From IMG/VR virus record IMGVR_UViG_3300027907_000553: a stretch of 64,000 nt of DNA. One strand, 5' to 3'. The stretch's first letter is position 1; each line of letters opens with the position of its first letter. The notes under the pieces were generated by a model that saw only the letters and a program-made list of their open reading frames with translations, did not search any database and was not told the origin of the DNA. The position numbers and the translations under genes are program-made. This document shows, one piece after another, positions 25,568 through 42,881 of this stretch. Source of the DNA: an uncultured virus (IMG/VR IMGVR_UViG_3300027907_000553). Its lineage: Duplodnaviria > Heunggongvirae > Uroviricota > Caudoviricetes.

Positions 25568-25633
25568 GTGGTCAGAGCCCTGTTGGTGTCTCAAGCACTG
25601 GCAGGGCTTGTTTTTTGTCCCTCTAGTATAGCA
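25568..25633 (-). promoter_or_regulatory. Extended -10 element plus hairpin leader upstream of HNH, copy 1
   Basis: GTGGTCAGAGCCCT..GGTGT..AAGCACTG..AGGGCTTGTTTT..AGTATAGCA, shared with 27127-27190. Confidence 0.65.
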
Positions 25634-27126: not shown

Positions 27127-27190
27127 GTGGTCAGAGCCCTTGCGGTGTTAGAAGCACTGTAAGGGCTTGTTTTATCCCATAAGTATAGCA
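27127..27190 (-). promoter_or_regulatory. Extended -10 element plus hairpin leader upstream of HNH, copy 2
   Basis: Same motif as 25568-25633. Confidence 0.65.
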
Positions 27191-27240: not shown

Positions 27241-27399
27241 GTGTATCTCGTCCTCATTATTGTGGTCGTCCTGCTGCTGCTTGGGGTATTTCCCGGCGCG
27301 CCCTGGAGTGGATGGCATGGGTACGGGTATTATCCTAGTAGCATACTCGGCATTGTACTCATAGTGCTCGTCATTCTTCTGCTCACGGGCCGCCTCTAG
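27241..27399 (+). CDS. Small two-TM membrane protein (DUF3309-like), 52 aa
   Basis: Hand translation: MYLVLIIVVVLLLLGVFPGAPWSGWHGYGYYPSSILGIVLIVLVILLLTGRL; GGAGG SD. Confidence 0.8.
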   Translation: MYLVLIIVVVLLLLGVFPGAPWSGWHGYGYYPSSILGIVLIVLVILLLTGRL

Positions 27400-27598
27400 C
27401 CCCGCCTACCCCAGGAGCCACCAGAGCACGGCCCCAAGCACCGCACCGAGGACCGTCAGCACCAGGCCGAGGAGACACCCGGCGCCACTGGGGCCAAGGT
27501 TGTGCGGATCAAGGCGTGGGTCGTGGGGCAATCGTGTATGCTCCGTGTCTGGCAGGAGAGGGGGGAAGGCGCGCACCCTCCCACCTCGGTATCTCGGC

Positions 27599-27751
27599 CT
27601 AGGAGCAGGACGAGCTGGCGCTGTTCGTTTGGGACAGCGTGATCGTCTGCGAGAGGCTGCCCGGTCCGCTCAGGCTTTGGGAATACGACACGGACGTGGA
27701 CTGGGAATAGGATACCACGGCACCGGCCTTCACGTTGGTCTGCACTTTCAT
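27599..27751 (-). CDS. 50-aa Ser-rich peptide
   Basis: Hand translation: MKVQTNVKAGAVVSYSQSTSVSYSQSLSGPGSLSQTITLSQTNSASSSCS; GGAGGT SD. Confidence 0.7.
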   Translation of the reverse strand: MKVQTNVKAGAVVSYSQSTSVSYSQSLSGPGSLSQTITLSQTNSASSSCS

Positions 27752-28030
27752 AGAACCTCCTGGCGCGGCCCTTCAAGCCGCACAGCGCTCGTGAGAAGTA
27801 TGGTCCACCGTGTCAGGACGCCCCTGACACGGGCTGTTCCAAGTGTAGCAGATAGGTGCCGTATTTTCCTATACGTAAATAAATCTTTTCCTTTTGTACA
27901 ATTTTGCTGCACATATTTTTCTTTTGTAGAAATCACGCAAAAGGTGTATGCTTGCCACGAACCGCGGGGAACGCTCGTCTGTACCCTTTTCCCCGGCGCT
28001 GTGCCCCTACCCCTGAGAGATACGAGGACG

Positions 28031-28429
28031 ATGGCCGATCCAGAGGCAGGAGACGTGCCCGATGCCATTGCACGGCGCCTCGATGCCATGCGTGAGGAGA
28101 AAGGCTGGTCGCTCTCCGAGTTGGCCCACCGTTCGGGCGTCAAGCTCGGCGTCCTGTCCGCGCTCCACCGAGGGCGGCGCAAGGGCAGCCATATGAAGCT
28201 CGGGGTGGCTGAGCAACTCTGTCACGCGCTTGGGAAACAGGTCGGGCGCGATCTCCTTTTGGAAGAGCAGATCCCCTGGCCACTGCCAGACGGGGTGGAC
28301 CTCGGGCAGATGTCGCAGCGGGAAAAAGAAGATCTCATTATTCAGTTAGCGGCAGAGTTCTTGCGCCGGGGCTTCCAAATTCCCCCCGTGCAAACACCAA
28401 GGAGCAACGATGGCCGAGAAATCCCCTGA
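28031..28429 (+). CDS. XRE-family HTH regulator
   Basis: RLDAMREEKGWSLSELAHRSGVKLGVLSALHRG. Confidence 0.85.
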   Translation: MADPEAGDVPDAIARRLDAMREEKGWSLSELAHRSGVKLGVLSALHRGRRKGSHMKLGVAEQLCHALGKQVGRDLLLEEQIPWPLPDGVDLGQMSQREKEDLIIQLAAEFLRRGFQIPPVQTPRSNDGREIP

Positions 28430-28649
28430 GAATCGCTGGCTGCGCGACTCCCTGCCGGTGCCCGACGAGGCCGTGGCGTGGGAGGAGGAGGTCGAGGCGA
28501 TGACCGAAGAGGAATTTTTTAAATACCTGGACGAGCACGAGGGTGGCCTCGCCTTTGGGGCCTAACACTCGGTAGCGTTCGCCGCGTGGGATGCCCTCGA
28601 TAAGCTGCCCACGCGGCACGTAGCACACAGCCTCGGAGAAAGGTGTGTT

Positions 28650-29471
28650 GTGGTAAGCATACCAGATCTATCCTCTACGCATGCAACTCCTGTGACAACG
28701 CCCCGCGCTGTTGAACCCACCGTGCTCCAGCCCGAGGCGCGTTCGGCGCATCCCGACCTGATGCTGCTGCTGGCTATGGAGCATCTGCAACAGGAGCAGC
28801 AACGCCTCGAAACCGAGGTGCAACAGCTTGTCCCGCTTCTTGAGCAAATCATTACCCTGCTCACGCCACGCCAAGAGCCTCCGCCGCCGCCCATCGCCTC
28901 CTATGCACGTTTGTATGCTGACGAGGACCTGCCTGACGTGGTCCCCCAGGTTGCCGCCGCCCCGCCGCCGCCGCCACGAAGGATCTGGCGCCGCGTCGTC
29001 GCCTCGCGCAGTAGCCGGGTCTTCGCTGCCCTCGCGGTGCTCGCCGTGGGCGCGCTTCCCTGGGTGCGGGTGAATGTCACGTCCAGTGCGCCTCGTGGCC
29101 TCTGGCGCCTGCTGGCTGTACCGGCAGTGGTGGAGAAAGGTATGTGGGTGACTATGCCCGCGCCCGCGAGTGTGAAAACCTGGGCGCCGCACTGGTCACC
29201 CCTGCTCAAGCCGGTAGCCGCGGTGGCTGGGGAACAGGTCTGTGTCGCCAAGGACACGCTCTTGATTCGGGGAGAGTCCTATGGCCGTGTCTTCACGCAG
29301 GATGCCGAGGGACAGCCGCTCCCACGGCTGCGGGAGGGCTGTATGGTGGTGCAGCCTGGCACAGTGTTCCTGGCCAGTGCTGGACATCAGAGTCTCGATA
29401 GTCGGTATTTTGGGAGTGTGCCGGTGGCGGCGCTGTCGTCGCGGGCGCTCCCGCTTCTCACGTGGAGGTAA
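28650..29471 (+). CDS. traF: TraF-like S26 pilin-processing peptidase with N-terminal extension
   Basis: NVTSSAPRGLW, LLKPVAAVAGEQVC, SLDSRYFG. Confidence 0.85.
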   Translation: MVSIPDLSSTHATPVTTPRAVEPTVLQPEARSAHPDLMLLLAMEHLQQEQQRLETEVQQLVPLLEQIITLLTPRQEPPPPPIASYARLYADEDLPDVVPQVAAAPPPPPRRIWRRVVASRSSRVFAALAVLAVGALPWVRVNVTSSAPRGLWRLLAVPAVVEKGMWVTMPAPASVKTWAPHWSPLLKPVAAVAGEQVCVAKDTLLIRGESYGRVFTQDAEGQPLPRLREGCMVVQPGTVFLASAGHQSLDSRYFGSVPVAALSSRALPLLTWR

Positions 29472-29682
29472 GGCACGGGTGAGACAGTTCTTGTACGACT
29501 GCCTCGATAAGCCGCTGGGGTGGTCCTTCTATGTGATAGAGCTCCTCGGTTTTCTCCTCGTCACGCTCTATTTCTATGGCGTGAATCCCTCGCACATGGT
29601 GGCGGAGATGGTGCGGGGGCTCTTGGTGTTTGGAGTGGTGTGTACTGGTCGTCGCCTGCTCGTCGGGCACTGGAGGTAACTC

Positions 29683-30033
29683 ATGGATACGTTGCAGCAG
29701 CTTCGGGATCGTCTTGCCAACTTGTATCGCACCGCCCTCGGCCGGGATCCTGTGCCGGGGCAACGCCAGGAATCGTCCTTGGTGAACGGGGTCCTGCGGC
29801 AAACGCTGGATCCTGACCAGGGACTGGCACAGCAGCGCCTGACGGCGCCTGAGAGGACAGGCCAGCAGTCCTCGCTCTCACGGCAGGCGTTTGACCAGTT
29901 GGGGCAGCGGAGTACGCCCGCTCCGTCGGCCCAGAAGTTTCTGGACCAGATTGATGCGCTCCAACAACGCCTGGCTGCCGCCCGGCAGGCGGATCAGGCG
30001 CAGCAGCGCCAGGGGTGGGAGCGTGGACGTTAG
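29683..30033 (+). CDS. Hypothetical Gln-rich protein
   Basis: GGAGGT SD; C-terminal QQRQGWER. Confidence 0.55.
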   Translation: MDTLQQLRDRLANLYRTALGRDPVPGQRQESSLVNGVLRQTLDPDQGLAQQRLTAPERTGQQSSLSRQAFDQLGQRSTPAPSAQKFLDQIDALQQRLAAARQADQAQQRQGWERGR

Positions 30034-30055
30034 GGACGATCGGTAGGGATCTCCA

Positions 30056-31570
30056 ATGACTGCTGTTGAAATGATCTTCCAACTGGGTCTGTGGACCAAG
30101 ACGCATCCCCAGCTGCTTTTTGGGGGGATGGGGAGCATGCTGGCCCTGATGGCCGGCGCCGGGATGTTGGGGCGTGCCAAACGGCACAAACAGATTACCC
30201 AGGGCAGCGCCAGGTGGGCCACGTTTCGAGAGATACGGGACGCAGGGTTGCTCGCGCCCCAGGGCGTGGTGGTTGGGCGCTTAGGGCGACGGCTCCTCTG
30301 TGACGATAGTGAGACGCACGACTTACTGCTGGCGCCGACGCGCAGCTGGAAAGGCATTGGCCCCATTCTCTGCACGCTCCTCGGCGGATGGCTCTCCTCA
30401 GTCCTGGTGTACGATCCTGCCGATGGGGAGAATGCCAACGCCTCGGCACGGTGGCGAGCCTCGTTAGGCCATCGGGTTGAACAATTTACGCCGAAGCGCT
30501 CGCCCCAGGCCTGCATCAATGTGTGTGACCTCATTCGCGTGGGAACGCCGCACGAGTTTGATGATGCCTGGGCGATTGCGGAGAGCCTCCAGCCGCAGGA
30601 CCAGCAGGTGCGCCACAGTGACACCGGCGTCCATTTTCGGGACCTGGTGTTGATGCTCCTCACCGCCGCGCAACTGCACATGGCCTACGCGGAACCGCCG
30701 GGCTCACTCGGCAAACTGCTGTGGCTCCTCATGCAGAAGTACCGCACGCTCCCGGCCTTTGTGCAGGAGATGACGCGCCACAACCACACGGGTATCGGCG
30801 TCCACCAGGCCATTCATATGCTGGCGACGGGGATTCAGAACATTACCAACGAGCGCGAGCTCTCGGGCGTGTGGACGACCGCGATCCGTCCCTTACTCCC
30901 CTATATGGATTACACGATTCAGCGCAGCACGGATCGCTCGACCATCGCCCTGCGCGATTTGCAGCATGGTCCCGCGCCGCTCTCGCTCTACCTGGTCGCC
31001 CCCAGCACCACGGATTTGACGCGCCTGGCCCCGGTCTACCGCGTCATTTCCGATATGGCCATGCGGGAGTTGGAGCAGATGCCGCCGCGGAGCGCTCGGC
31101 ATCGCCTGCTGGTCATTGCGGATGAGGCCCCGGCCTATGGCTATAGCCGCTTTCTCGATAAAGGGAGTGCTGAGGTGGCCAAGTTTCGCATCAAGCTCCT
31201 TCTTGTGGCGCAAGATATCCCGCAGTTGGATGCCACGTTTGGGCGGGACAATAGCGTCTGGGGGAACACCTCCACCAAGATTTTCTTTGCTCCGGATAGT
31301 GATGTGACGGCCAAGCGCCTCAGTGAGCATTTTCTCGGCAAAGAGACCGTGGAGCAACCCGTCCTTTCGAAGCAGCCGGGTCTCGTCCAGCGGCCCTCGG
31401 TGTCGTATCAGCAAGTCGGGCGCGCGCTCATGACGCCCGATGAATTGCGGGCCATGCACCCGCGCGCTGCGATTGTCTACCGGACGGGGCTGCGGCCCAT
31501 TCTGTGTGGCAAGGTGAATTGTTTGACCGATCCAGACTATGCCGGCAGGCATACGGCGCCAGTCCCGTAG
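30056..31570 (+). CDS. virD4: Type IV coupling protein VirD4/TraG with variant Walker A
   Basis: GSARWAT..AGLL, APTRSWKGIG, LLVIADEAP, LVAQDIPQL, RALMTPDEL. Confidence 0.9.
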   Translation: MTAVEMIFQLGLWTKTHPQLLFGGMGSMLALMAGAGMLGRAKRHKQITQGSARWATFREIRDAGLLAPQGVVVGRLGRRLLCDDSETHDLLLAPTRSWKGIGPILCTLLGGWLSSVLVYDPADGENANASARWRASLGHRVEQFTPKRSPQACINVCDLIRVGTPHEFDDAWAIAESLQPQDQQVRHSDTGVHFRDLVLMLLTAAQLHMAYAEPPGSLGKLLWLLMQKYRTLPAFVQEMTRHNHTGIGVHQAIHMLATGIQNITNERELSGVWTTAIRPLLPYMDYTIQRSTDRSTIALRDLQHGPAPLSLYLVAPSTTDLTRLAPVYRVISDMAMRELEQMPPRSARHRLLVIADEAPAYGYSRFLDKGSAEVAKFRIKLLLVAQDIPQLDATFGRDNSVWGNTSTKIFFAPDSDVTAKRLSEHFLGKETVEQPVLSKQPGLVQRPSVSYQQVGRALMTPDELRAMHPRAAIVYRTGLRPILCGKVNCLTDPDYAGRHTAPVP

Positions 31571-31600
31571 GCTGGAGTGGAAGCAGGAAGGAGACGCACC

Positions 31601-31927
31601 GTGGTGAGCAAGACTGAGCGGAACACGACGGTTGGGGTGGTGGTGATGATAGGCGGACTCCTGGTGGTCCGCCAGGCCGCAGCCTTTTCCCTGGGGATTG
31701 CCCTCGATGGGTTTCTCGGGGATCTCGAAACGGCGCTGGTGTCCCTGGGCCTCATCGCCTTTTTGGCGGGCGGGATTGGCACGATTGTGGCGATGACCGA
31801 GAATGCCTACGCGCAATTCTTGAGTGGGTATCTCTCGCTCTTCGTCAAGGGCGGTATTTTAGGGGGGCTCTCCACGATTGGCGGGGCGTTGGGCCTCGTG
31901 AGTGGCGCCATCCTGCTAGGAGTGTAG
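31601..31927 (+). CDS. Pilin, VirB2/TrbC-like
   Basis: Small hydrophobic protein directly before VirB3 and VirB4. Confidence 0.6.
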   Translation: MVSKTERNTTVGVVVMIGGLLVVRQAAAFSLGIALDGFLGDLETALVSLGLIAFLAGGIGTIVAMTENAYAQFLSGYLSLFVKGGILGGLSTIGGALGLVSGAILLGV

Positions 31928-31928
31928 C

Positions 31929-32225
31929 ATGGCCGAACGGTGGGGGACGCTGGGCTATGAAGCCCCGATTCGCCTAGGCACCTGGCAGCGCCTGCTGAGT
32001 CTCGGGGCGCCACGCATGTACTCCTACACCTGGCTCATTGCCTGTATCTGGGTGGGCCTGGTCACCTGGATGAAGCTGGGCATGCGCTGGGCGGCGGCGA
32101 TCGGGGTGGTCTGGCTCAGCGTCCAACTCCTCTTGATTGGCCTCACGTACTGGAATGTGAATTGGGATAGTGCGTTGCTGGCCCGCTGGCGCCGTAAATA
32201 TCAACCGTACTATAGGGCAGGATAA
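31929..32225 (+). CDS. VirB3/TrbD-like protein
   Basis: GYEAPI..LSLGAPR, two TM segments, precedes VirB4. Confidence 0.7.
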   Translation: MAERWGTLGYEAPIRLGTWQRLLSLGAPRMYSYTWLIACIWVGLVTWMKLGMRWAAAIGVVWLSVQLLLIGLTYWNVNWDSALLARWRRKYQPYYRAG

Positions 32226-32227
32226 GC

Positions 32228-34855
32228 ATGGCGGTTTATACCGAATACCACCCGCAGCCCCGCAAAAAACCTGCCGTGGTCAGTGATATGCTGCCCTGGC
32301 GCGCGATGGTGGCCCCCAACGTGGTGCTCCAGAAAGACAAGGGCCTCCAACGCTCCTATGCCGTGCGAGGCACCGATGTGACGGGCCTTACCCCCGAAGA
32401 ACTGGGCACACAAGCCCTGCGGGCCAATGATGTCCTCAAAAAGTTTGGCGGGCAGTGGATGATCCATAGTGAAGCCCAGCGCCGACGCGTGACCGCCATC
32501 CCCCAGGCAGATTGGCAGGGCTATGCGGTGGCCGCGTGGATGGATGCCTGTCGCCGCCACCAACTCCTCGAAGATCCCGGTAGCTACGAAACGCAGTATT
32601 TTATGACGCCGACCTATCGCCCGCCGCCCGAAGCCGCCGTACAGGGTCTGCGCTGGTTCCTCTATGGCCCCGGTGCCCAACGCCAGACGGCAGAGGAGGC
32701 GCGGCAGCGCACCGAACAGGAGTTTGTGACGCAAGTCGATTACTTTATGGGGCTCCTTAGTGGCATGCTGGCCGAGTGTCGCGTGCTGACGCCAGCGGAG
32801 ACATTTACCTATCTCCATTCCACGATTTCGGATCAGTGGCACCCAGTGGGCACGCTGGCCTACTGGAACGGCATTGATAGCCAGCTCGGCACCTCGCCCT
32901 GGTACGGGGAGCATTACCCAAGCCTGGGAGGGCGGCCGGACGATCCGCAGTCCTGGAAAGTGCGGCTCTGCTCCATTATGGGCTATCCGCACAGCTCGGT
33001 CGTAGGGGTCATGCAGGCGCTCGACGTGGCGCAAGTGGAGTATCGCTGGGTGGTGCGCTGGCTGGGGATGCATCGCCAGTTGCAAGAAGGGATTTTGCGC
33101 CGGCGTCACCATGCCTGGGTGGGTCAGGAAAAAACGATGGCGCAGCGGGCGGCGGAACAGCTTGGCGGGGATGCGGCCCGCGTGACGGATAGCTCGGCCT
33201 TAAACAAAGCCGCCGAACTCGATGCGGCCCGGCAAGAAACCGGGCATGACCTGGTGGCCTACGGCGATTTTACCACGGTCATTATGGTCTGGGACCGCGA
33301 TCCTGCGGAAGCCGATATGAAGCTGCAAATCGTGCGCCAGGCCCTGCAAGATCGCGGCTTTACCACGGCGGTCGAAACCGATGAGAGTACGCCGGCCTGG
33401 TTTGCCACCCATCCGGGGAACCGTCTCGATCATGTCGCCCGCACGCCGCAATCCTCGCTCACGCTCGAACACCTCTGTCCGGGCCTCAATGCCGCCTGGC
33501 GTGGCCCAGAGCGTGACGCGTATCTGGACGGCTTGCCGTGGCTCTATGCCGTCAGTCGGGGGAATACGCTCATTAGGATCGTCAATCATATTCGTGACCT
33601 GGGACACTTCTTGGTGCTGGGCGCTACCCGTGCTGGTAAGTCGACGCTCCTCAACCTGTTACGCGCGGCCTGGATGCAGTACCGCCACGCGCAGGCCGTG
33701 CTCTTCGATCTGGATGGGCACGGCCGGCTGCTCACCCATCTCTTGGGCGGCGCGTGGCATGATCTGGGGGCGCCTGGCGTGCAGTATGCGCCGTTTCAGG
33801 GCCTGGAGGACCCGGAGCACCTGGGCCTGGTGCAAGAGTGGCTCCTGGACCTCTTGCTCGATTACGGCATTGAGCGCGATGCCATGGTGGTGAGTCATCT
33901 GGGGCGCGGCCTGGCCGCCTTGCGAGAGCAGCCGGCGGCACAACGCACCATGAGTACGCTCCTGAGTCTCCTGGTGGCGGCGGGGGAATCTGCCACGCAG
34001 CGGGCGAGGACAGGCAGTCGGGATATTCACGGCATTGCGCACCCGGATCAAACGCTCATGACCCTGGTCAATACCCGGCATGCCATCCACCGCACGCTCG
34101 AACAATTTACGCACCGTGGTGTGTATCAAGGGCTGTTTGATGCGGCGACGGACGACCTGACGGGCCATCCAGTCCAGACCTTTGAGATGGCGCAGCTGCT
34201 TCATCGTCCCTCGATCCTGGCCCCGGTCCTGCGCTACATCCTCAATCTCCATGTGGAGCCGCAGATGAGTACGGCGGCACCTATGTTCCTGGCGATGGAC
34301 GATGCGGCGGTCTCGTGGATGGCCGACTCGATGACGCAGGAAGTAACGGGCATGGCGGGAGTCCGGCGCGAAGAAAAAGTCCAGACCTACCTCCAAACCA
34401 AGGCCAAAAAAGCCGTGAGCCTGGGCTTTTCCACCCACAGCCTCATTAAAGTGTTTGGCGGGCCGCTGGGGACGCTCCTTCAGGAAGCGTGTCCGAGTCG
34501 ATTCATGCTGCCGAACGGGGCGGCACTGGAGCCGGACATCTATGCCGTCTATCAGCGTCTTGGGCTGACGGATCCGGCGATTCAGTTAGTCGCCCGCGCG
34601 CAACCCCAACGGGATGTCTTTTTTGTCCAGCGCGAGCTCGGGCAGCAGCTCGTGAGCATTCCGCTGCCGAAGCCGGTACTGGATTGTGTCGCAAGGAATA
34701 GCGCGGCGGACCATGCGCTGATCGATCGTCTCCTCGCTACGGAAGGTCCAGAGGGTTTTCCTCACGCGTGGTTTCGCGCCTGCGGGCAGCACGAGGCGGC
34801 AACGTTTGTCGAAAGGTATCACGATGACGCGAAGCGCATGGCTCCAATTACCTGA
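32228..34855 (+). CDS. virB4: VirB4/TrbE ATPase
   Basis: DMLPWRAMVAPNVVLQKDKGLQR; LGHFLVLGATRAGKSTLL; CPSRFMLPN. Confidence 0.93.
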   Translation: MAVYTEYHPQPRKKPAVVSDMLPWRAMVAPNVVLQKDKGLQRSYAVRGTDVTGLTPEELGTQALRANDVLKKFGGQWMIHSEAQRRRVTAIPQADWQGYAVAAWMDACRRHQLLEDPGSYETQYFMTPTYRPPPEAAVQGLRWFLYGPGAQRQTAEEARQRTEQEFVTQVDYFMGLLSGMLAECRVLTPAETFTYLHSTISDQWHPVGTLAYWNGIDSQLGTSPWYGEHYPSLGGRPDDPQSWKVRLCSIMGYPHSSVVGVMQALDVAQVEYRWVVRWLGMHRQLQEGILRRRHHAWVGQEKTMAQRAAEQLGGDAARVTDSSALNKAAELDAARQETGHDLVAYGDFTTVIMVWDRDPAEADMKLQIVRQALQDRGFTTAVETDESTPAWFATHPGNRLDHVARTPQSSLTLEHLCPGLNAAWRGPERDAYLDGLPWLYAVSRGNTLIRIVNHIRDLGHFLVLGATRAGKSTLLNLLRAAWMQYRHAQAVLFDLDGHGRLLTHLLGGAWHDLGAPGVQYAPFQGLEDPEHLGLVQEWLLDLLLDYGIERDAMVVSHLGRGLAALREQPAAQRTMSTLLSLLVAAGESATQRARTGSRDIHGIAHPDQTLMTLVNTRHAIHRTLEQFTHRGVYQGLFDAATDDLTGHPVQTFEMAQLLHRPSILAPVLRYILNLHVEPQMSTAAPMFLAMDDAAVSWMADSMTQEVTGMAGVRREEKVQTYLQTKAKKAVSLGFSTHSLIKVFGGPLGTLLQEACPSRFMLPNGAALEPDIYAVYQRLGLTDPAIQLVARAQPQRDVFFVQRELGQQLVSIPLPKPVLDCVARNSAADHALIDRLLATEGPEGFPHAWFRACGQHEAATFVERYHDDAKRMAPIT

Positions 34856-35077
34856 GCGTGAGCGGGCGGCGATCCGGCAGGCGAGTGCCGAGGCCAGCTT
34901 GCGCGATTTTGCCCCACGCCATGCGCGCCGCCGCAGTGAGTGGGAGCGCACCATGAGTATCTGGGAAGCTCGGGATGCCTACCGCGTCCAGAATGGTGTG
35001 CTCGGCGTCGGACTCGCGGCGCTGCTCGGTTTCGTGCTGATATGCGCGGGGATCTTTCTCCGCTAGAAAGGTGCCAT

Positions 35078-35284
35078 ATGAATCGCCATGTGCTGATGGG
35101 AAGTTTCTGGGTTGCGGGCACGCTCCTCCTCATGCTGGTAGGGGTGGTACTCCTCGCGTTCACGCTGAGCGGCTGTACGGACTTTGGCTACCGGATGAAC
35201 GAACTCCATGGTTTGAATTGCCGACCCGAGGCGCTCAAGGACGGGAAATGTGTGAGCACCAGTAGCAAGGAGGTCAAACAATGA
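35078..35284 (+). CDS. Small lipoprotein, possible entry-exclusion or VirB7-like
   Basis: Lipobox LSGC, next to trbJ. Confidence 0.45.
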   Translation: MNRHVLMGSFWVAGTLLLMLVGVVLLAFTLSGCTDFGYRMNELHGLNCRPEALKDGKCVSTSSKEVKQ

Positions 35285-35979
35285 ACCGGCTTCGTCTCCT
35301 CCTGGCGCCTGTGATCCTCATGGCCCTGGCTCTGCCTGGTCACGCGCAAATCCTAGGGACCGGGGTAATGCCGGTGGTCGAGGTAGGGGCCAATTTGACC
35401 CAGTCCACAATAACCGCTATTCAGAGCGTTATTACGGCAGCTCAGACTACTTTAATTCAAGCCAACCAGATCCTAGATCTAACCCCGGTGAAGTCTCTGA
35501 CCGCTGCCGGAGGTATCGTCGAGGACATCGAACTCATGTGTAACATCCTCCAGGAGGCCGAGGCCATTCAAGCCGACGTGCAGAGCCTGGAGCACCAGAT
35601 TGCCGTCCTCCTGGACCTGGAGCAAGCGCCACGCACACGCGCGGAGCTCGATGCCCGTCTGGCGGAACTCAAGAAGATGAAGCAGCAAGCCATGACCTTC
35701 GCGTTTCGGAGCCAGACTCTCATTCGCACCCTTATTCGCACGGGCGATCACATGAAAGCCTTGTTTGCCGATGTCGAGCAACTCTTGGGCAACCTGTCGG
35801 GGCAACAACGGCTCGCGGAAGTGCAGCAAGTCCAGAATAAGACGTTGGCGGTACTGGCCGCACAAACGGCGGCCTGGCAACGGGCGGACGTGGTCGACCG
35901 CGCCACCGCGGATATGGTGCGAGAGAGCATGAGTCGCATTGGCGATCAACGCCTGGCCGATTGGCCCCGTTGGGAGTAA
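35281..35979 (+). CDS. VirB5/TrbJ-like protein
   Basis: Signal peptide, helical Gln-rich; ANLTQSTITA. Confidence 0.7.
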   Translation: MNRLRLLLAPVILMALALPGHAQILGTGVMPVVEVGANLTQSTITAIQSVITAAQTTLIQANQILDLTPVKSLTAAGGIVEDIELMCNILQEAEAIQADVQSLEHQIAVLLDLEQAPRTRAELDARLAELKKMKQQAMTFAFRSQTLIRTLIRTGDHMKALFADVEQLLGNLSGQQRLAEVQQVQNKTLAVLAAQTAAWQRADVVDRATADMVRESMSRIGDQRLADWPRWE

Positions 35980-35982
35980 CGC

Positions 35983-36915
35983 ATGGAAGCCCTGATCAAT
36001 CTCCTGGCGGGCGCTTATCTCAGCGCGCTCGAAGCAGGTGCGCGTGCGCTGGCACAGTACGCCATTCCTATTCTCAGCGTCGCCGCCCTGATCCAACTCT
36101 ACCGGGAATGGTGGCCCGTCATGCTGAGCGGCGGCAGCCAGTTGGGCGACGCCCTCGGGCATCTGCTCTTTCTGGCGGTGACCACGGGCTTTTATATGTG
36201 GGTGCTGGTGCACCTCTGGGACATGGGACAGGCGGCCTTTGACACGTTTGCCACCTGGGGCATGCTCGGGGGCGGCAATGGGCTCAGTAGTGAGCAACTC
36301 CGCAACCCCGGCTTTATTCTGGACATCGGGTTGCGCGTCGCCTTTCCCCTCGCTGAGCAAGCCACCTGGTATCAAAAAATCTGGCAGGGCTTGAGCCTGG
36401 CCTTTGCGCCCAGCGAATGGTTGCAGGTCCTAGCGATTACCCTCGCCTTTGCGGCCATTGCGGTCCATCACCTCTTTATGCTCGTGGAGTTTTACCTGGC
36501 CCTCATGTGCGGCCAGGTCCTCATTGGCTGGGGCATCTGGCGCACCACCACCCATTTTGCCGAGTTTAGCCTGGGGTGGATTACCGGGGCCCTCATTCGG
36601 GCGCTCGTGAGTTGTACGATGCTTGGCTTGTCCATCCCCCTCTTTGAGCAACTCCGCCTCCCTCCACCCGCGACGGGAGGGGTCTTCGATGTGATGACCT
36701 ATATCCAGACCGCCACCCCCGTGATCGGGAGCCTCATTTTTGCGGTCCTGGCCTGGGTGCTCCCCGCCAAGGCGGCGCGGCTGGCTGGAGGGGCTTCGCT
36801 GGGGCTCACAGGCTCGACGATTGCCTCGGCGGCCATGACGACCACCCGCTTTGTCCAGATGTCGACCGGGGTGGCTCGGGGCACCTCGGCCATGCTACGG
36901 CGCGTGGGCGCGTAA
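35983..36915 (+). CDS. VirB6/TrbL-like protein
   Basis: Multi-TM; LRNPGFILDIG, LVEFYL, WRTTTHFAE. Confidence 0.85.
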   Translation: MEALINLLAGAYLSALEAGARALAQYAIPILSVAALIQLYREWWPVMLSGGSQLGDALGHLLFLAVTTGFYMWVLVHLWDMGQAAFDTFATWGMLGGGNGLSSEQLRNPGFILDIGLRVAFPLAEQATWYQKIWQGLSLAFAPSEWLQVLAITLAFAAIAVHHLFMLVEFYLALMCGQVLIGWGIWRTTTHFAEFSLGWITGALIRALVSCTMLGLSIPLFEQLRLPPPATGGVFDVMTYIQTATPVIGSLIFAVLAWVLPAKAARLAGGASLGLTGSTIASAAMTTTRFVQMSTGVARGTSAMLRRVGA

Positions 36916-36925
36916 GGAGACGAGA

Positions 36926-37681
36926 ATGGCGACACGCACGGCGACAGACGTGGCCCCCACCATCGGCAGCAGCAACGGCCATGGCCTGCCAACCTTGCCG
37001 CCAGAGCTCGAAGCGTTTCCCGCCATGATCGAGGCGGTCATCAAGCAGACGAAAGCCGACCTCGATGCCCGCGATGCCTCGGCCGAACAGCACGCCTGGC
37101 TCTGGCATCGCTTTGCCCTCTGGCTGGGGGGGCTCCTCTGTGGGGCGCTCCTCATCGTCGCCTGGCTCGTCTATGAGCGGCGCGACGTGCAGGCCTTCGT
37201 CCAGGTGGTGCAGATGGACGAAGGCCGTCTCGTGCAGATTGGGGTTCCACAGAAGTTGCTCGACTATACCCCGCCTGATGCCCCGTACATGGACATGCTG
37301 GCCGAATGGCTGCGGCGGGTGTACTGGCGCGGCGACGACGTGGCCAAGGCGGAGTTGCATGATTGGCGCTGGGTGGAACTCCACACCTGCCCCAGTGCGC
37401 GCCCCTTTCTGGCGGGGCTCAAAACGAAGCAGAAGCCGGGCAAAAAGGTGACCACGCGGGTGCAGGTCAACATCACGAGCATCACGAAAACTCCAACACC
37501 CAAGAGTTATCAAGTGCTCTGGGAACAAGTGACCACAGGCACAGATGCCAAAGGCAAATCCGCACAATTTACCACCACCTTTACCGTGGGCCGCCTGGCC
37601 TTAAAGACACTGGCGGATGCCGAAGATAACCGTCTCGGGATTTGTGTTTCGTCGTTTGACACGGCGGAAAATGCGACGTAA
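36926..37681 (+). CDS. VirB8/TrbF-like protein
   Basis: TM segment then SYQVLWEQ..NRLGICV. Confidence 0.8.
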   Translation: MATRTATDVAPTIGSSNGHGLPTLPPELEAFPAMIEAVIKQTKADLDARDASAEQHAWLWHRFALWLGGLLCGALLIVAWLVYERRDVQAFVQVVQMDEGRLVQIGVPQKLLDYTPPDAPYMDMLAEWLRRVYWRGDDVAKAELHDWRWVELHTCPSARPFLAGLKTKQKPGKKVTTRVQVNITSITKTPTPKSYQVLWEQVTTGTDAKGKSAQFTTTFTVGRLALKTLADAEDNRLGICVSSFDTAENAT

Positions 37682-37694
37682 GGAGAGTGCTGGT

Positions 37695-38639
37695 ATGCGT
37701 GTCCTTGGTGTGCTTGTGCTGTGCCTGCTAGCGGGATGTGCCGAACCCCCGCCGCCACCCCTGGTGCCTCCGCCGCCCGAGGACCTCTCGACGTGGTCTG
37801 TTCCTGAAGTGGTAAGCCCGGCACCGGTCTCCGCCGCTGCTGAGGTGCCCCCAGCCAAAGAGGCGCCCCCAACTCTCGCCGAGAAAGTCTATGCCTACAC
37901 GCGTGGTGGCACGTATCTGGCACCTGTCAGCCTCGGCTTTCCACTCGATATTGTCTTTGGCCCCGGCGAGGAAGTCCATACGCTCACCGATGGGGACCGG
38001 ACGCCCCAGGAGGAGGGCAAGGTCCGCAAGTGGCAGGTGCTCCAGGGCAAAGAAGGGAGTGGCGCGGCCACGACGCGCCATCATGTGTTCGTCACCGCGA
38101 GTGAGGTGGGGTTACGCAATGGCATCATCGTCACGACCACGAAGCAGACGTATTACATTACCCTGGAGAGTGTCGCCAAGTCGCCAATCCGCGTGCTGCG
38201 GTGGAAAGAGGAGGGCGATCCGCCCAAGCCTGCCCCCGCCCAGGCGCCACTCTTGCCGGCCCCAGAGAGCCCCACGCGCTACCACGTCGGCTACACCGTC
38301 GAGTCCGTGCACCAGCCGCCCCCGTCCTGGGTGCCACGCGTGTATGACGACGGCAAAAAAATGTACATCGTGTATCCCGAGGTGACGCTCTTTGAAACGG
38401 TTCCCCTGGTCCGCAAGGTCGGGCCTCAGGGGCCACAACTCATCAATGCCCGGCAGTATTTGAACGTCGTCATCCTCGACGAACTCGCGGGCCGTTTGGA
38501 GCTCCGGGTAGGGATTGGCGAGCAGGCGGAAGTCGTGACGGTGACACGCGCACGGTTACGCACCATCCAGTGCCCCGACGATGCCGAGTGCCCCCGCTGG
38601 CCCGCGGCGGCGCAGCACTTAGTAGGGAGGCGACCATGA
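37695..38639 (+). CDS. VirB9/TrbG-like protein with lipobox
   Basis: LLAGC; DIVFGPGE; WVPRVYDDGKKMYI. Confidence 0.85.
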   Translation: MRVLGVLVLCLLAGCAEPPPPPLVPPPPEDLSTWSVPEVVSPAPVSAAAEVPPAKEAPPTLAEKVYAYTRGGTYLAPVSLGFPLDIVFGPGEEVHTLTDGDRTPQEEGKVRKWQVLQGKEGSGAATTRHHVFVTASEVGLRNGIIVTTTKQTYYITLESVAKSPIRVLRWKEEGDPPKPAPAQAPLLPAPESPTRYHVGYTVESVHQPPPSWVPRVYDDGKKMYIVYPEVTLFETVPLVRKVGPQGPQLINARQYLNVVILDELAGRLELRVGIGEQAEVVTVTRARLRTIQCPDDAECPRWPAAAQHLVGRRP

Positions 38640-39766
38640 GAGGCGCCGTCTATACCAATCCCATGGCCTCACCCCCCGTCACCGGACGCTCCTTTGGGCG
38701 CCTCATGCTTGCCTTCGTCGCCATCGTGGTGCTTGCCCTGGTCGTGGTGGGCGGGATCTTGTACCTGCGCCGGACGTCGGCCACGACCGCCGCGCCCGCG
38801 GAAAAGCCGGTGCGTACCTGGAAGAGCCAGAGCATCTATCCGACGCAGGACAAAGACCCCATCGTCCGCGACCTGACCGTCCAGGCACTCCCCACCGTCC
38901 CCGCGCCAGCGCCCGATACAGTCGGGCCACGGCTGGACGCGCTGGAGCGTCAATCGAAGAACATCTTGCACGCGCTCGAAACCCTCCAGCATCCCCTGCC
39001 CGCCAATCGCGGTCCGCTCCAGGCTCCTCCTCGGCAGGCCCCCAGGAAGGAGCCCCCGAAGCCGCCATCGCCCGCACTCCTCATTACCAACAAGGTGGAG
39101 CCCTCGCCCCCGCCAGAGACGACTCCCCTGTACACGCTCGCCCCTGGTGCTACCAAGGTGCCGTTTGTTCTTGAGACCAAGATTATCTCTGATGTCGAAG
39201 GGAAACTTACCGGGCGCGTCACCACGAACGTCTATGACACGGCGACGGGGCGCCATCTCCTCATTCCCCAGGGTTCGACCATCCTCGGCGATACGCAGAG
39301 TAGCAAGCTCCTCTACGGCAATGAACGCCTCGACACTGTGACGCTCAAACTGGCCTTTCCCGATGGCCGTAGCGTGGACCTGGGCCAGGCGCCCATTACG
39401 GATCAGGATGGTGTGTCCGGGATGGGAGGTGATGTAAACCAACACTATGGCAGATTGTTAGCGGCCGTCCTCATTCAGGGCGTCCTCAAGGGTGGAACGA
39501 CTTCGATTACCGTCGCTGCGAACGAAGCTGCCGGCGTGGGGCACATCGCGTCGAGTGTCGCAGGTATTGGGGCACAGGCGGGAACCCGCATTACGGGACC
39601 ACTCCTGAGTACGAAACCCACCATTACCGTGGAGGCGGGCCAGCTCGGTAACGTCATCTTACTACAACCGCTCAAGCTTCCGGCTATGTGGCAGGACGGG
39701 GAACCGCGGGAGGTCCCGAAGCCTACGCATGCAACGACACCCAAATCGACCCCACTCAGGAGATGA
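38636..39766 (+). CDS. VirB10/TrbI-like protein
   Basis: NVYDTATGRHLLIPQGS, FPDGRSVDL, DVNQHYGRL, PTITVEAG. Confidence 0.92.
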   Translation: MRGAVYTNPMASPPVTGRSFGRLMLAFVAIVVLALVVVGGILYLRRTSATTAAPAEKPVRTWKSQSIYPTQDKDPIVRDLTVQALPTVPAPAPDTVGPRLDALERQSKNILHALETLQHPLPANRGPLQAPPRQAPRKEPPKPPSPALLITNKVEPSPPPETTPLYTLAPGATKVPFVLETKIISDVEGKLTGRVTTNVYDTATGRHLLIPQGSTILGDTQSSKLLYGNERLDTVTLKLAFPDGRSVDLGQAPITDQDGVSGMGGDVNQHYGRLLAAVLIQGVLKGGTTSITVAANEAAGVGHIASSVAGIGAQAGTRITGPLLSTKPTITVEAGQLGNVILLQPLKLPAMWQDGEPREVPKPTHATTPKSTPLRR

Positions 39767-39770
39767 TCCG

Positions 39771-40496
39771 ATGACCAGAGTAGAACGTGCTGCCGAGAAA
39801 CTACGCAAGGAGAGAGCCAGGATCGTAGAACTGGAGCGTGAATTTAAAGCGCGACGGATGGAGCAGCGTACGAAAACACGCCAGGCAGAAGCCGTCGTGC
39901 GGGAGCAGGCCCGTCACCACGAAAATAAATGGCGTTTCCAAGTCGGCTCCCTGGCTTCCCAGGCAGGCTTGCGCGATTGGCCCACTGCTGATCTCATCCT
40001 CATTTTCCGGGCGCTGGCGAGTTTGCGCGACGTGACTCAGGCTCTCGCCGTGCTGGAAGCGGGCCTTGGGGTCCTCACACAGGGCGACTTCCAGGGATTG
40101 AGCGATCGTGTGACTGATCTCTCTGATGCCTGGGATATTCCTTATCAGAACCAAGACCTCTCCCTTCATCCCATCAAGGCGAGCGGCTCAGGCATTGTCT
40201 ATATCCTCCAAACAGAAGAATCACCTTTGCTCAAAATTGGCTGGACGGCCAATATGCGCCTCCGTGTCAAAGAATTGCAGACAGGGTGCCCTGCCCCATT
40301 GCGGGTGCTCCGAACATATTATTGCTATGACGCCGAACTGATCGAGGCGGAAGTCCATCGGCATCTTGCGGAGGTGCGCCGCCACGGCGAGTGGTTTGAA
40401 ACAGATCTGGAGACCGTGGATGAGCTGGTGATGAAGCTGTGTACCCCGGTTTTGGAACTCACACGCTATCTTGAGCCCGCGTCGGGGCATGGCTGA
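39771..40496 (+). CDS. Mobilisation-accessory-like coiled coil fused to a GIY-YIG/T5orf172 domain
   Basis: FQVGSLASQAGL in the N-part; VYILQ..LKIGWT..RVKELQTGCP..HGEWF in the C-part. Confidence 0.75.
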   Translation: MTRVERAAEKLRKERARIVELEREFKARRMEQRTKTRQAEAVVREQARHHENKWRFQVGSLASQAGLRDWPTADLILIFRALASLRDVTQALAVLEAGLGVLTQGDFQGLSDRVTDLSDAWDIPYQNQDLSLHPIKASGSGIVYILQTEESPLLKIGWTANMRLRVKELQTGCPAPLRVLRTYYCYDAELIEAEVHRHLAEVRRHGEWFETDLETVDELVMKLCTPVLELTRYLEPASGHG

Positions 40497-40507
40497 AGTG
40501 TTTCCTC

Positions 40508-40549
40508 GCAGATCGCAAATATCATTTGCGATCTGCCTAACAGCGCTTT
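40508..40549 (+). other. Putative MOBQ-type oriT
   Basis: Perfect 13-bp IR GCAGATCGCAAAT-atc-ATTTGCGATCTGC followed by TAACAGCGC (cf. RSF1010 TAAGTGCGC), upstream of the relaxase. Confidence 0.75.
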
Positions 40550-40690
40550 CCGGGTTTCTCTCCCCATTCTGCACCGTCGAGGGGGAAAAATCCCTGGCCC
40601 TGTCCTAGAGACTTCTGAGGAGTCTGACCGTAGGGAAGCGACGAGGAAGGGGCCAAGCGGCAGCGAAAGTTTACACCCCAAGGCAGGGAT

Positions 40691-41788
40691 ATGGCGCATC
40701 TGGGATTTACGCGGACGGTGTATAAGAGTGGCAGCGCAGACAAGGCGGCAGCGCGGATCGAATACATCACGGGGCACACGATCATGCCGCTGGATCAGAC
40801 CACCCGTGAACTCCGGTACCTTACCGAAGGCCGGGAAGATTTGGTCAAGGAAGGCACCCGCAACCTGCCGACCTGGGCCGCGTCTGCCCATGCCTACTTT
40901 GCGGCTGCCGAGCGCTATGAAGGTGGGGGCGAACACCGACAGTATAATGCATTTGAGGAGTGGAAGATTCTCCTGCCCTACGAACTGAGCCGCGCCCAGA
41001 ACGAAGCGTTGGTCGAGGACCTCCTAGATACGATAGTCGGCACGGCCCTGCCGTGCACCTATGCCTTTCATGAGCCCCGGACGCTCAGTGGGTCACGGCC
41101 ACAGCCCCACATCCATCTACTCCTGTCTGCCCGGCGCAATGACGAACACGTCCGCACGGTCGAGACGCACTTTAAACGCCATAACCGCACGCATCCTGAG
41201 CGCGGGGGCGCGCAGAAAGACGAGACGTTTCGCGCCTTGGGGGCGGTGAAGGCTCATCGCCTCATGATTTCCGACATCGTGAACCTGCATCTGGAGCTGC
41301 ATGGGCAGGGTGCCAGGGTGCATCCTGACTCGCTCCAAGCGCGTGGTATCGACCGCACACCGGAACCCAAACTGTTGCCGAGTGAAAGCCAGAAATATCG
41401 AGAGAAGGGAATCAAAACTGAACGGGTCCAGGACGTATTAGCGATCCGCCAGGCCCGCGCTACCCAACCTCCCCGCGAACAGAACAATGCCCGGCAGTAT
41501 TGGGAGCAACGCAAAGCGTTCTTGGGCATTACGCGGGACATGCCGCACGCGCAGAAGCTCGCGCACATTTTGCTGAAGCGCCATGGCAGACCAGATCGCG
41601 TGCCGGTGCGTTACCGGACGCTGCTGCAGCAGCCGCCATCCCGTACGCAGGAGCCCAGGCGAGAGCGGGGTGGACAGGTGCAGCGGCTCGCACGGGTCCT
41701 CGTGGCGCAGCTGGAAGATACCCGTGCGCAGGGCACGCTGCGCGTGCGACTGCATGAGCCAGAGCAGGGTCAGGGGATGGGGATATGA
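40691..41788 (+). CDS. MobA/MobL (MOBQ) relaxase
   Basis: AAARIEYIT, NLPTWA, LPYELS, AFHEP..QPHIHLLLSAR. Confidence 0.92.
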   Translation: MAHLGFTRTVYKSGSADKAAARIEYITGHTIMPLDQTTRELRYLTEGREDLVKEGTRNLPTWAASAHAYFAAAERYEGGGEHRQYNAFEEWKILLPYELSRAQNEALVEDLLDTIVGTALPCTYAFHEPRTLSGSRPQPHIHLLLSARRNDEHVRTVETHFKRHNRTHPERGGAQKDETFRALGAVKAHRLMISDIVNLHLELHGQGARVHPDSLQARGIDRTPEPKLLPSESQKYREKGIKTERVQDVLAIRQARATQPPREQNNARQYWEQRKAFLGITRDMPHAQKLAHILLKRHGRPDRVPVRYRTLLQQPPSRTQEPRRERGGQVQRLARVLVAQLEDTRAQGTLRVRLHEPEQGQGMGI

Positions 41789-41814
41789 GCACACCTGTTA
41801 GAGGGAGACACGTC

Positions 41815-42837
41815 ATGAGGAGACGCGGAGGCGCCGGGCTCTGGCTTGGCCTGCTATTGTGGGGAGCAACCGCCTGGGGTGCCACGTATTACGTGAGTCC
41901 GTCAGGCAGCGATGGCAACGCCGGAAGTGAGGGGCAACCCTTTCGCACGGTGGCCCGCGGCCTCCAGTCCCTGGCCTCGGGCGATACCCTCTACTTGCGT
42001 GGGGGCAATTATGGCGAAGAGATCAATCCGACCGTGGGCGGCATTCCCAACGGTGGGGGGAGCTGGGCGACGGCCACCACGATTGCCGGGTATCCAGGGG
42101 AAACGGCGCAGATTGGCCGGATTAATCTGGGTGACGGCGGCGGGTTTGCGTGGATGCGCTTTACCAACCTGACCCTCCCCTCGGTGTTTCTGGCCGGCGA
42201 TACGCATCACATCCGTGTCGATGGGTCCGACATTGCCTACAGTCCCAATCACGGCATTGCGGGCGGCGGCGGCTTCCACGAGTTTGTGAGTAATAAGATT
42301 CACGATGCCTATTACTACGGCACGTATTGGGCCGGGCATGACACCCTCTTTGAAAATAATGACTTCTACAACAACGGCGGCTATGCCGTCCATCTCTATA
42401 ATACCGGGGCAACCAATGTGAGTGAGAATGTGATCCGCAACAACCGGATTACGGGCAATGGCTTGCGCCATAACGACCAGCATTCCGGTGGGGTTATCCT
42501 CTCCCACGGCACCAACAACCAGGCCTATAACAATCTCATTGATGGCAACTTTGCCGGGGTGCAGGTGGATTATGATTGCGTCGAGTGCCAGGTGCATGAC
42601 AATACGATTAGCAACAACCTGACCTATAGTATCCAGGTGGGGCGCGCGGTCAACACGCACATCTGGGGTAACACCATTACCGGGAATGGCAACGACGGGA
42701 TTGCGGACACGGGGAGCGGGACCACGACGGAGCCAGGGGCGCCACCGCGGCCGGGGACACCCGAGTCCCCAGGGGGAGGACCTGCGCCCCGGCTTCCGCC
42801 CCGGACCACCACCACGCTTGCCGCAGGGAATCCCTGA
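41815..42837 (+). CDS. Secreted right-handed beta-helix protein, paralog of 20594..23053
   Basis: WGATYYVSPSGSD, TIAGYPGET, AGDTHH, YNNLIDGNF. Confidence 0.85.
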   Translation: MRRRGGAGLWLGLLLWGATAWGATYYVSPSGSDGNAGSEGQPFRTVARGLQSLASGDTLYLRGGNYGEEINPTVGGIPNGGGSWATATTIAGYPGETAQIGRINLGDGGGFAWMRFTNLTLPSVFLAGDTHHIRVDGSDIAYSPNHGIAGGGGFHEFVSNKIHDAYYYGTYWAGHDTLFENNDFYNNGGYAVHLYNTGATNVSENVIRNNRITGNGLRHNDQHSGGVILSHGTNNQAYNNLIDGNFAGVQVDYDCVECQVHDNTISNNLTYSIQVGRAVNTHIWGNTITGNGNDGIADTGSGTTTEPGAPPRPGTPESPGGGPAPRLPPRTTTTLAAGNP

Positions 42838-42881
42838 CGCCGCTAAGGCCGATGGCGGCGCCATCGGAGGCAAGTACGGGA

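Follow-up and report, generated by a model that had tools for sequence, protein, structure and literature searches.

The 64,000-nucleotide (nt) stretch analysed here, from IMG/VR record IMGVR_UViG_3300027907_000553 of an uncultured member of the Caudoviricetes, carries a block of conjugation genes in Trb order at positions 28031-41788. The whole stretch is referred to as the window, and Wn denotes position n in it. The block lies between tail and depolymerase genes on one side and a minus-strand RecT/primase-helicase module on the other. The window probably represents most of the ~82-88 kb genome of an uncultured siphovirus-like phage of rhizosphere soil. Instead of an integrase, the lineage of this phage has probably had a Trb/P-type conjugation module for a long time, which would serve as a second, contact-dependent route of spread. 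The observations behind this explanation concern gene content and its intactness, selection on the genes, the conserved position of the block, its co-divergence with the phage and a circular map free of host DNA.

The window (GC content ~0.60) is a tailed-phage genome nearly from end to end. The hallmark genes of the Caudoviricetes were all found: large terminase (terL; phrog_2), portal (phrog_145), tape measure (TMP_3), tail tube (phrog_158) and HK97-type capsid protein (phrog_212). The last of these is in an extension provided by IMG/VR record G001, which is 100% identical to the window from W31712 to the window end and continues for 8.7 kb with scaffold and major capsid protein genes. Tail genes, the type IV secretion system (T4SS), the replication module, terL and portal are all encoded on one contig. 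Other IMG/VR records are likewise given G numbers (G003, IMGVR_UViG_3300050498_000431; G004, IMGVR_UViG_3300050499_000294; G007, IMGVR_UViG_3300036826_000567), and loci on JGI metagenome contigs are given L numbers.

Gene content of the conjugation block

A total of 86 open reading frames (ORFs) of the window were scanned against Pfam, and a match was counted when it exceeded the gathering score of the family. Eight genes of the block exceeded it. The genes upstream of the relaxase are as follows, with bit scores given against the respective threshold.

28031-28429, plus strand: XRE/Cro-C1-type helix-turn-helix regulator, first gene of the block (Pfam HTH_31/HTH_3/HTH_26; kept in L023 and L026)
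28650-29471, plus strand: TraF-like pilin-processing signal peptidase, S26 (Pfam PF10502, E 1.4e-13, 51.6 bits vs 22.9; NCBIfam TraF models E 2e-20, below cut-off)
30056-31570, plus strand: type IV coupling protein TraG/VirD4 (PF02534, E 4.4e-54, 184.5 bits vs 20.1; also PF12696 and PF10412; dN/dS 0.09)
31577-31927, plus strand: candidate TrbC/VirB2 pilin, hydrophobic, 116 amino acids (aa) (by position and hydrophobicity; dN/dS 0.14)
31929-32225, plus strand: candidate TrbD/VirB3 with two membrane spans, 98 aa (by position)
32228-34855, plus strand: TrbE/VirB4 ATPase (PF03135 CagE_TrbE_VirB, 31 bits vs 21; NCBIfam TrbE, E 6.6e-163)
34940-35284, plus strand: small lipoprotein with a lipobox, possibly TrbK-like (entry exclusion) or VirB7-like (from sequence; weak TrbK_RP4 match, E 0.004)
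35281-35979, plus strand: candidate TrbJ/VirB5 with a signal peptide (by position; AlphaFold2 model all-helical)
35983-36915, plus strand: TrbL/VirB6 (PF04610, E 4.2e-9, 36.9 vs 25.9; NCBIfam TrbL_P)
36851-37681, plus strand: TrbF/VirB8 (PF04335, E 4.9e-14, 53.1 vs 23.2)
37617-38639, plus strand: TrbG/VirB9, CagX (PF03524, E 3.8e-26, 92.6 vs 34.2)
38570-39766, plus strand: TrbI/VirB10 (PF03743, E 3e-34, 119 vs 35)
39729-40496, plus strand: gene with a T5orf172/MUG113 domain, a lineage-specific insert between trbI and the relaxase gene (Pfam)

Of the components that mark a conjugative T4SS, a VirB4-family ATPase, a coupling protein, a relaxase and the envelope core VirB6/8/9/10 are present. A preliminary description of this stretch had listed traF, virD4, virB2-6, virB8-10, oriT and a MOBQ relaxase. 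Pfam supports traF, virD4, virB4, virB6, virB8-10 and the relaxase, while virB2, virB3 and virB5 are assigned by position and the oriT is a candidate. The three positional candidates have the expected size, location and membrane or signal features. The VirB3 candidate is 98% identical in amino acid sequence between lineages (dN/dS 0.04-0.06) and 40% identical to the copy in G006, a distant relative described below. A fold search with the model of the TrbJ/VirB5 candidate (predicted local distance difference test score, pLDDT, 64) retrieved generic helical bundles only, with no match at E <= 0.001.

The XRE gene is preceded by a conserved AT-rich stretch. A sigma-70 consensus scan was uninformative (8 sites against 5.9 expected). 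The T5orf172 stretch (W39816-40949) does not align to L023/L024. In the L023 lineage, a selfish-looking, lineage-specific insert of another kind, a 196-aa ORF with low GC at third codon positions (L023 9408-9998), lies between the VirB3 candidate and VirB4. The preliminary description had also suggested that a cassette of the phage guides against virD4, and this found no support: there was no Rfam family and no tRNA, none of six tandem-repeat rows was array-like, and virD4 and the remainder of the window had no exact word longer than 14 nt in common (one match), similar to shuffled sequences (0-3 matches in 20).

Relaxase and candidate origin of transfer

Downstream of the T5orf172 gene, the block contains a relaxase gene and two non-coding features.

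40508-40536, no strand: perfect 13-bp inverted repeat with a 3-nt loop, candidate oriT-type hairpin (fold z -2.5)
40609-40670, no strand: non-coding element of ~60 nt, candidate nic/oriT region, conserved in all four T4SS-bearing lineages
40691-41788, plus strand: MOBQ-type relaxase (PF03389 MobA_MobL, E 4.9e-14, 53.1 vs 26.7; PDB 2NS6 MobA, E 6.5e-14)

The histidine motif of the relaxase (HxH-type, metal) aligns with that of MobA (2NS6), and the NCBIfam MobQ model scores 46.3 against a cut-off of 200. The inverted repeat and the 60-nt element are 70 nt apart, both between the T5orf172 gene and the relaxase gene. Copies of the element occur in the window, L023, L025 and, in inverted orientation, G006, and none in G003, G004, G007 or G008. 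It is conserved even in G006, where the T4SS proteins are no more than 36-55% identical. Its conservation far exceeds that of the neighbouring genes, which would fit a nic region, and we regard W40508-40670 as a candidate oriT.

The module comprises an XRE regulator, TraF peptidase, coupling protein, VirB3-4-6-8-9-10 channel, putative pilin and putative TrbJ, lipoprotein, MOBQ relaxase and an oriT-like element, and may work in the following way. The operon would build a mating channel in a carrier or infected cell. The relaxase would nick at the conserved element beside its gene, and TraG/VirD4 would pass the relaxase-DNA complex to the channel. The whole phage genome could then enter a neighbouring cell with no need for the virion receptor, and the primase-helicase, RecT and methyltransferases of the phage may re-establish it in the recipient. 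The terminase would package the same genome into tailed particles, giving long-range spread.

Residency of the block in the phage lineage

A VirB4 scan of JGI metagenome contigs yielded seven relatives among 18 pattern matches. All four large loci (L023-L026) are collinear with the window across both junctions of the block at 74-87% DNA identity. L023 matches L024 at 99.99% identity, and L025 matches L026 at 100% in their overlap, so that three lineages are represented together with that of the window. The DNA identity of these lineages is ~85%. VirB4 is 94-96% identical in amino acid sequence in these loci (96% in the L023/L024 lineage and 94-95% in the L025/L026 lineage).

Divergence was compared between the window and the L024/G004 lineage. 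Most T4SS genes show a synonymous divergence (dS) of 0.35-0.68, the TrbJ candidate and the relaxase showing 1.26-1.55, with a ratio of nonsynonymous to synonymous divergence (dN/dS) of 0.04-0.25. The phage core genes of the same pair have a dS of 0.28-1.0 and a dN/dS of 0.04-0.16. No frameshift or stop was found in any of the eight model-supported genes in the three lineages. The matching dS and low dN/dS indicate that the block diverged together with the phage and is under purifying selection.

G004, which IMG/VR flags as 'provirus', is 87% identical to the window in terL and 89% in portal. It spans the replication, head and tail genes, from the equivalent of W43845 round to that of W20583, and its end overlaps L024 at 99.8% over 636 nt. 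The G004 portal is 100% identical to a portal cluster in which the longest contig measures 70,484 bp, the size of the L023 contig; portal and T4SS on this contig are linked via the equal size in the protein search and the 100% portal match only. With that contig, G004 and L024 close a circle of ~88 kb that contains only phage and T4SS genes and no host DNA. In G004, the ~9 kb that the window lacks encode structural proteins, namely the tail terminator, the connector, a Gp80-like fibre and a giant LamG protein. No integrase, transposase, ParA/B, plasmid Rep, att-like repeat or host gene was found in the window, the G001 extension or the overlapping lineage records scanned. In the window itself, Pfam detected no integrase or transposase family in the 86 ORFs, and no direct repeat flanking the block was better than 33 nt at 73%.

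Both junctions of the block are carried by independent contigs. The right one is present in G001, and the left one in metagenome contig L029, which is 99.97% identical to the window over W22228-32484. Thirteen of 15 listed rhizosphere sequencing runs contain part of W23001-33000, 11 with at least half of its sampled words; two were flagged as possible sources. In four runs not flagged as source, contigs cover W24501-44500 in 28-30 of 30 bins, and depth is about equal on flanks and block within each run. Pieces from the runs bridge 28429/28650 (X6, 27883-28742) and 41788 (X4, 41035-43607; X6, 41477-42923; X5, 41736-42864). Since the run data are contigs, minority variants are possible.

W36201-36218 and W44224-44243 are joined (44243 to 36201, with four letters between) in one record per run in all four runs, at a depth of 17-98. 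The depth of this joint is far above that of the phage in three of the four runs, and the matching sides measure only ~18-20 nt. The joint probably reflects an abundant contig of other origin that has two short stretches in common with the window.

Taken together, these data strongly support the block as a resident part of this phage lineage. The preliminary description had proposed this residency from the lack of integrase, transposase and att-like ends, a lack that we confirm. Independent contigs and four runs cross both junctions, the overlapping records of a relative close a circular map, and phage genes and virB4 occur together in the L023-L026 lineages and in G006.

G004 ends within phage genes on both sides of the T4SS stretch, and the start of G001 lies within the T4SS itself. 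Virus calling or assembly seems to cut these genomes at the plasmid-like block, and IMG/VR genomes of this lineage being cut at the T4SS is a practical artefact to reckon with.

Distribution of related modules

G006 (67 kb, IMG/VR) contains the same T4SS at 36-55% amino acid identity; its relaxase is 51%, its primase-helicase 68% and four of its fibre-region proteins are 31-40% identical to those of the window. Scans of IMG/VR for this VirB4 clade found only G001 and G006 (one of one matching stretch, then two of 55). VirB4 homologs of 41-81% identity were found on contigs of 50-105 kb. Two of them were matched, by equal size and source only, to portal homologs of 72% identity on contigs of 105,655 bp (JGI) and 50,619 bp (Logan). 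Another homolog (P0038, 1221 aa, on a 100,012-bp contig) contains Hom_end/LAGLIDADG intein domains and is 54% identical over 53% of the query.

Among sequenced plasmids, 1553 of 72,556 matched, the nearest TrbE being 32% identical. A VirB4 match occurred in only three of 50,697 phage records, all of them faecal fragments. Portal matches in PLSDB were at most 27% identical. In a protein atlas, VirB4 retrieved generic clusters of Pseudomonadota TrbE only. A portal search for hosts gave four relatives among 84 matches at 31-39% identity (an Acidobacteriota metagenome-assembled genome (MAG), Herbaspirillum, Skermanella and another MAG), too distant for a host call.

G007 (98,897 bp) is 93% identical to the window lineage in the capsid protein and 71% in the portal. 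At 67000-81500 it encodes a different, F/TraC-type T4SS with a TraC-type VirB4, TraU, a TrbI-like protein, a weak TraL match and a coupling protein. The record further encodes ParA, two TnpB proteins, an integrase-like protein and a resolvase, and no relaxase was recognised in it. A search with its TraC gave 17 homologs, none on a contig equal in length to one with a portal homolog, and in IMG/VR the G007 record alone. Because G007, with its similar capsid protein, is at least 98.9 kb long, genome capacity is no obstacle to carrying such a module.

We tentatively extend our explanation to a sizeable and old group of soil siphoviruses that may be integrase-less 'conjugative phages', with their own T4SS, relaxase and oriT, spreading by whole-genome mating as well as by virions; this extension is possible but may well prove too broad. 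The trait would have been acquired at least twice with unrelated machines, of Trb type here and of TraC/TraU type in G007. The Trb type would form a virus-associated clade on 50-105 kb contigs far from sequenced plasmids, and virus/plasmid classifiers would hide these genomes by trimming or splitting them.

Points weighing against conjugative spread

Several observations weigh against a lineage-wide, functional conjugation module. VirB11/TrbB is absent from every copy examined, with no match in the 86 window ORFs, the L023/L025 ORFs or G006; W28-42 kb contains no unassigned ORF of VirB11 size. The familiar Trb systems need TrbB. The VirB2, VirB3 and VirB5 candidates received no support from Pfam, NCBIfam or PDB sequence searches. 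NCBIfam gives Trb/IncP-like names to the block genes, yet every match is below its curated cut-off (e.g. 543.6 against 1020 for TrbE). As candidates for the catalytic tyrosine of the relaxase, two N-terminal Tyr are kept in the window, L023, L025 and G006, but they are outside the MobA alignment. Expression, assembly without VirB11, nicking at the candidate site and conjugative transfer are what we infer from sequence.

Other points concern maintenance and distribution. The window, the G001 extension and the gap region in G004 contain no partition or plasmid Rep gene, and one XRE regulator is the only lysogeny apparatus. G003 ends at the left junction, so its T4SS state is not covered, and the 67 kb of G006 hold no head genes, the record ending in the tail module. 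The VirB4 of the window type is absent from G005 and from all five of G007-G011. G008 (66,424 bp, complete, with a 123-bp terminal repeat and a 78% identical capsid protein) has a tyrosine integrase and no T4SS; T4SS residency is not universal in the wider group. A host search by VirB4 found no relative among 199 pattern matches in 185,579 species genomes, and no host was assigned. Logan contigs lose rare variants, so that minority genomes without the T4SS could go unseen.

The VirB4 scan of G002-G005 gave no match in the four records, of which G002-G004 do not cover the site. G005 turned out to be related through terL only.

Alternative explanations

The best-surviving alternative, which we consider unlikely but worth keeping in view, is that the T4SS is functional and serves another use: protein or DNA delivery to neighbours, pili or adhesins contacting susceptible cells, or a receptor for the virions of the phage itself, with the beta-helix and glycoside hydrolase family 9 (GH9) enzymes clearing matrix. 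The module is under purifying selection, beta-helix genes always flank the block and also stand by the unrelated T4SS of G007, and neither VirB11 nor plasmid maintenance genes are present. However, the relaxase, the coupling protein and the strongly conserved non-coding element beside the relaxase gene are kept in all four lineages, and a pure protein-secretion or pilus system does not need them.

An improbable alternative is a conjugative plasmid, or an excised integrative and conjugative element (ICE), carrying a prophage or a domesticated particle similar to a gene transfer agent or a tailocin, so that the phage half would be no autonomous virus. In G006 the T4SS indeed travels with the half that encodes primase-helicase, methylase and RecT, whereas G007 and G008 have only the structural half in common with the window. 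In addition, no endolysin or holin was recognised, and the records were trimmed or split by IMG/VR. Against this, the virion gene set is full (terS-like gene, terL, portal, MuF, scaffold, capsid, connector, terminator, tube, tape measure, gpJ and fibres) and under purifying selection (dN/dS 0.04-0.16). Both within the block and next to it there are free-standing HNH and T5orf172 genes of the kind that is typical of phages. The structural relative G008 has a terminal repeat, as real virion genomes do, and no separate plasmid backbone (rep/par) was found.

It is very unlikely that the block is an inherited but decaying remnant without present function: the missing VirB11 and the operon inserts (the T5orf172 gene in the window and the low-GC3 ORF in L023) would suit decay, but the eight model-supported genes are free of frameshifts and stops in three lineages at a dN/dS of 0.04-0.25 over a dS of ~0.35-1.3. 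That the block arose by chimeric assembly, or was recently and independently inserted into one phage as a plasmid or ICE segment, is hardly credible. IMG/VR records do break at or in the block (G001 at W31712, G003 near W28190, G004 at W43845), and its GC content of 0.60-0.64 is slightly above that of W20-28 kb (0.55-0.60), but GC from 42 kb on (0.60-0.65) is the same as in the block. Because identical flanks occur in three diverged lineages, block divergence matches that of core genes, independent contigs and four runs span both junctions, and no integrase, transposase or att-like repeat is present, the block is neither a chimera nor a recent insertion, and this alternative is refuted as far as the data go.

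Comparison with known systems

Two separate routes of autonomous gene transfer are distinguished, phages and conjugative elements. If our explanation of a phage lineage with a resident conjugation module is true, a virus lineage with a long-kept, selected and complete-looking mating module would represent a third kind of strategy, joining receptor-independent contact spread in structured soil with long-range spread by particles. It would change the reading of host range, of 'provirus' boundaries and of plasmid/virus classification in metagenomes. The dual virion and conjugative transmission proposed in the preliminary description is a reasonable inference from the intact, selected gene set, the relaxase, the coupling protein and the conserved element, with transfer itself a prediction from these.

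The module resembles IncP/Ti-type Trb systems in its families and their order (trbC-D-E-(K)-J-L-F-G-I), its TraF peptidase and its TraG coupling protein, and the relaxase resembles the MOBQ relaxase MobA of RSF1010 (PDB 2NS6) in its histidine motif. Unlike those Trb systems, it has no TrbB/VirB11 and no TrbH, its NCBIfam scores are far below equivalog cut-offs, its TrbE is at most 32% identical to plasmid homologs, and it is embedded in a virus. The 'conjugative prophage' Phi1207.3 is not known to have a T4SS of its own. Both Phi1207.3 (PMC4260502) and the conjugative megaplasmids with prophages (PMC12934698), the latter described as larger than 300 kb with separable prophages, likewise link prophage spread to conjugation.

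Phage-plasmids (the P1, N15 and SSU5 groups) are defined by their genes for plasmid replication and partition, and it is as virions that they pass from cell to cell (Pfeifer et al. 2021, PMC7969092; Pfeifer and Rocha 2024, PMC10879196). Like them, the lineage of the window combines virion genes and plasmid-typical functions on one replicon, with no integrase and a circular extrachromosomal map; unlike them, it has a complete, conserved set of mating genes including a relaxase, and no rep/par gene was found in it. For lack of such a gene, the label 'phage-plasmid' of the preliminary description does not apply in the strict sense; the missing integrase and the closed extrachromosomal map agree with it. 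T4SS domains in phage-plasmids are called 'sporadic' in a 2025 preprint (10.1101/2025.11.07.687105), and reviews and surveys present phage-plasmids without conjugation except for rare recent cointegrates.

The Escherichia coli conjugative phage-plasmid p1002-1 (SegMantX preprint, 10.1101/2025.03.14.643293) similarly has phage and conjugation genes on a single replicon. In the present lineage, by comparison, the module is interleaved with phage genes, has a TrbE no more than 32% identical to that of any sequenced plasmid and has co-diverged with the phage. In phage-ICE tandems, two integrative elements, each with integrase and att, are described side by side in the chromosome, 'rather than a hybrid element' (Huang et al. 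2026, PMC13651849). These tandems share with our proposal that phage DNA can travel via a conjugation machine. Unlike an ICE or such a tandem, the lineage of the window has no integrase, att site or host flank, its T4SS lies inside the phage gene order, and the flanks are phage genes in all lineages. Full-text searches of the literature retrieved recent cointegrates, tandems and sporadic T4SS domains and no co-diverging T4SS-bearing tailed-phage lineage; supplementary lists, e.g. that of Pfeifer 2021 on phages with CONJscan matches, may contain such cases.

Phage genes around the block

The main features outside the conjugation block are as follows.

57-1139, plus strand: tail tube proteins (Pfam/PHROG)
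4933-14833, plus strand: tape measure (4933-8100; Pfam TMP_3), distal tail proteins and gpJ-like central fibre (9536-14833; phrog_31, E 1.4e-86)
20477-24941, plus strand: beta-helix protein 1 (20477-23053) and GH9 glycoside hydrolase, the left flank (Pfam)
41785-42837, plus strand: secreted beta-helix protein 2, final plus-strand gene of the block (Pfam Beta_helix, E 2.3e-19; paralog of 20477-23053)
42882-44033, minus strand: beta-helix protein 3, convergent, opening the recombination/replication module (codon-position GC; Pfam Beta_helix)
45006-46187, minus strand: RecT recombinase (Pfam PF03837, E 4.9e-26)
47424-49832, minus strand: primase-helicase (DUF3987), 68% identical to the copy in the distant, T4SS-bearing G006
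57928-60977, plus strand: large terminase (phrog_2 and phrog_5902) and portal (phrog_145, E 1.2e-104)

The central fibre is followed by fibres with an S74 chaperone and then, on the plus strand, by a LamG protein, the 858-aa beta-helix protein and the GH9 hydrolase; two paralogous HNH genes and small membrane-protein genes stand between GH9 and the conjugation block. To the right of beta-helix protein 2, genes run on the minus strand according to codon-position GC. This module comprises the third beta-helix protein, DUF4326, RecT, primase-helicase, HNH, two methyltransferases and VRR-NUC. Beyond it, coding returns to the plus strand, starting with a terS-like gene and followed by terL, portal and MuF. 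The preliminary description had placed the block between tail/lysis and replication genes. The tail and replication flanks are as described, and no endolysin or holin was recognised in Pfam and PHROG scans of the window and the G001 extension. A superinfection-immunity gene (Imm_superinfect) is encoded at 55368-55643 on the minus strand.

The T4SS block is bracketed by the three beta-helix proteins and GH9 (20477-24941 and 41785-44033). The paralogy of beta-helix genes on both sides, noted earlier, is real: proteins 1 and 2 are 37% identical over 295 aa (E 8e-45), the gene at 42882-44033 is a third paralog, and at least proteins 1 and 2 have signal-peptide-like N-termini. In G007, a DUF1565/Pel9A-type beta-helix protein is encoded just past its T4SS, with 30% identity over only 80 aa to that of the window.

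The paralogous free-standing HNH genes (24947-25594 and 26403-27098, both minus strand) are each followed by a copy of one strong hairpin-plus-T run (25575-25609 and 27134-27168; repeats D1/D2, 71-79% identical). Because neither gene aligns to L023/L024 or G003, the pair looks like recent homing-endonuclease inserts. A small minus-strand cassette at ~27380-27760, encoding a 50-aa Ser/Thr-rich peptide and a short membrane peptide, is kept in the window, L023 and G003 (406-640). At its start (1-640), the G003 record breaks off ~275 nt into a Pro-rich C-terminus; a hairpin and this cassette come next, an order that resembles L025 12036-12571. Should G003 contain the T4SS block, the block may have the opposite orientation relative to the tail genes. 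In L025 the small Ser/Thr-rich cassette (12349-12578) is inverted and lies on the opposite side of the T4SS block.

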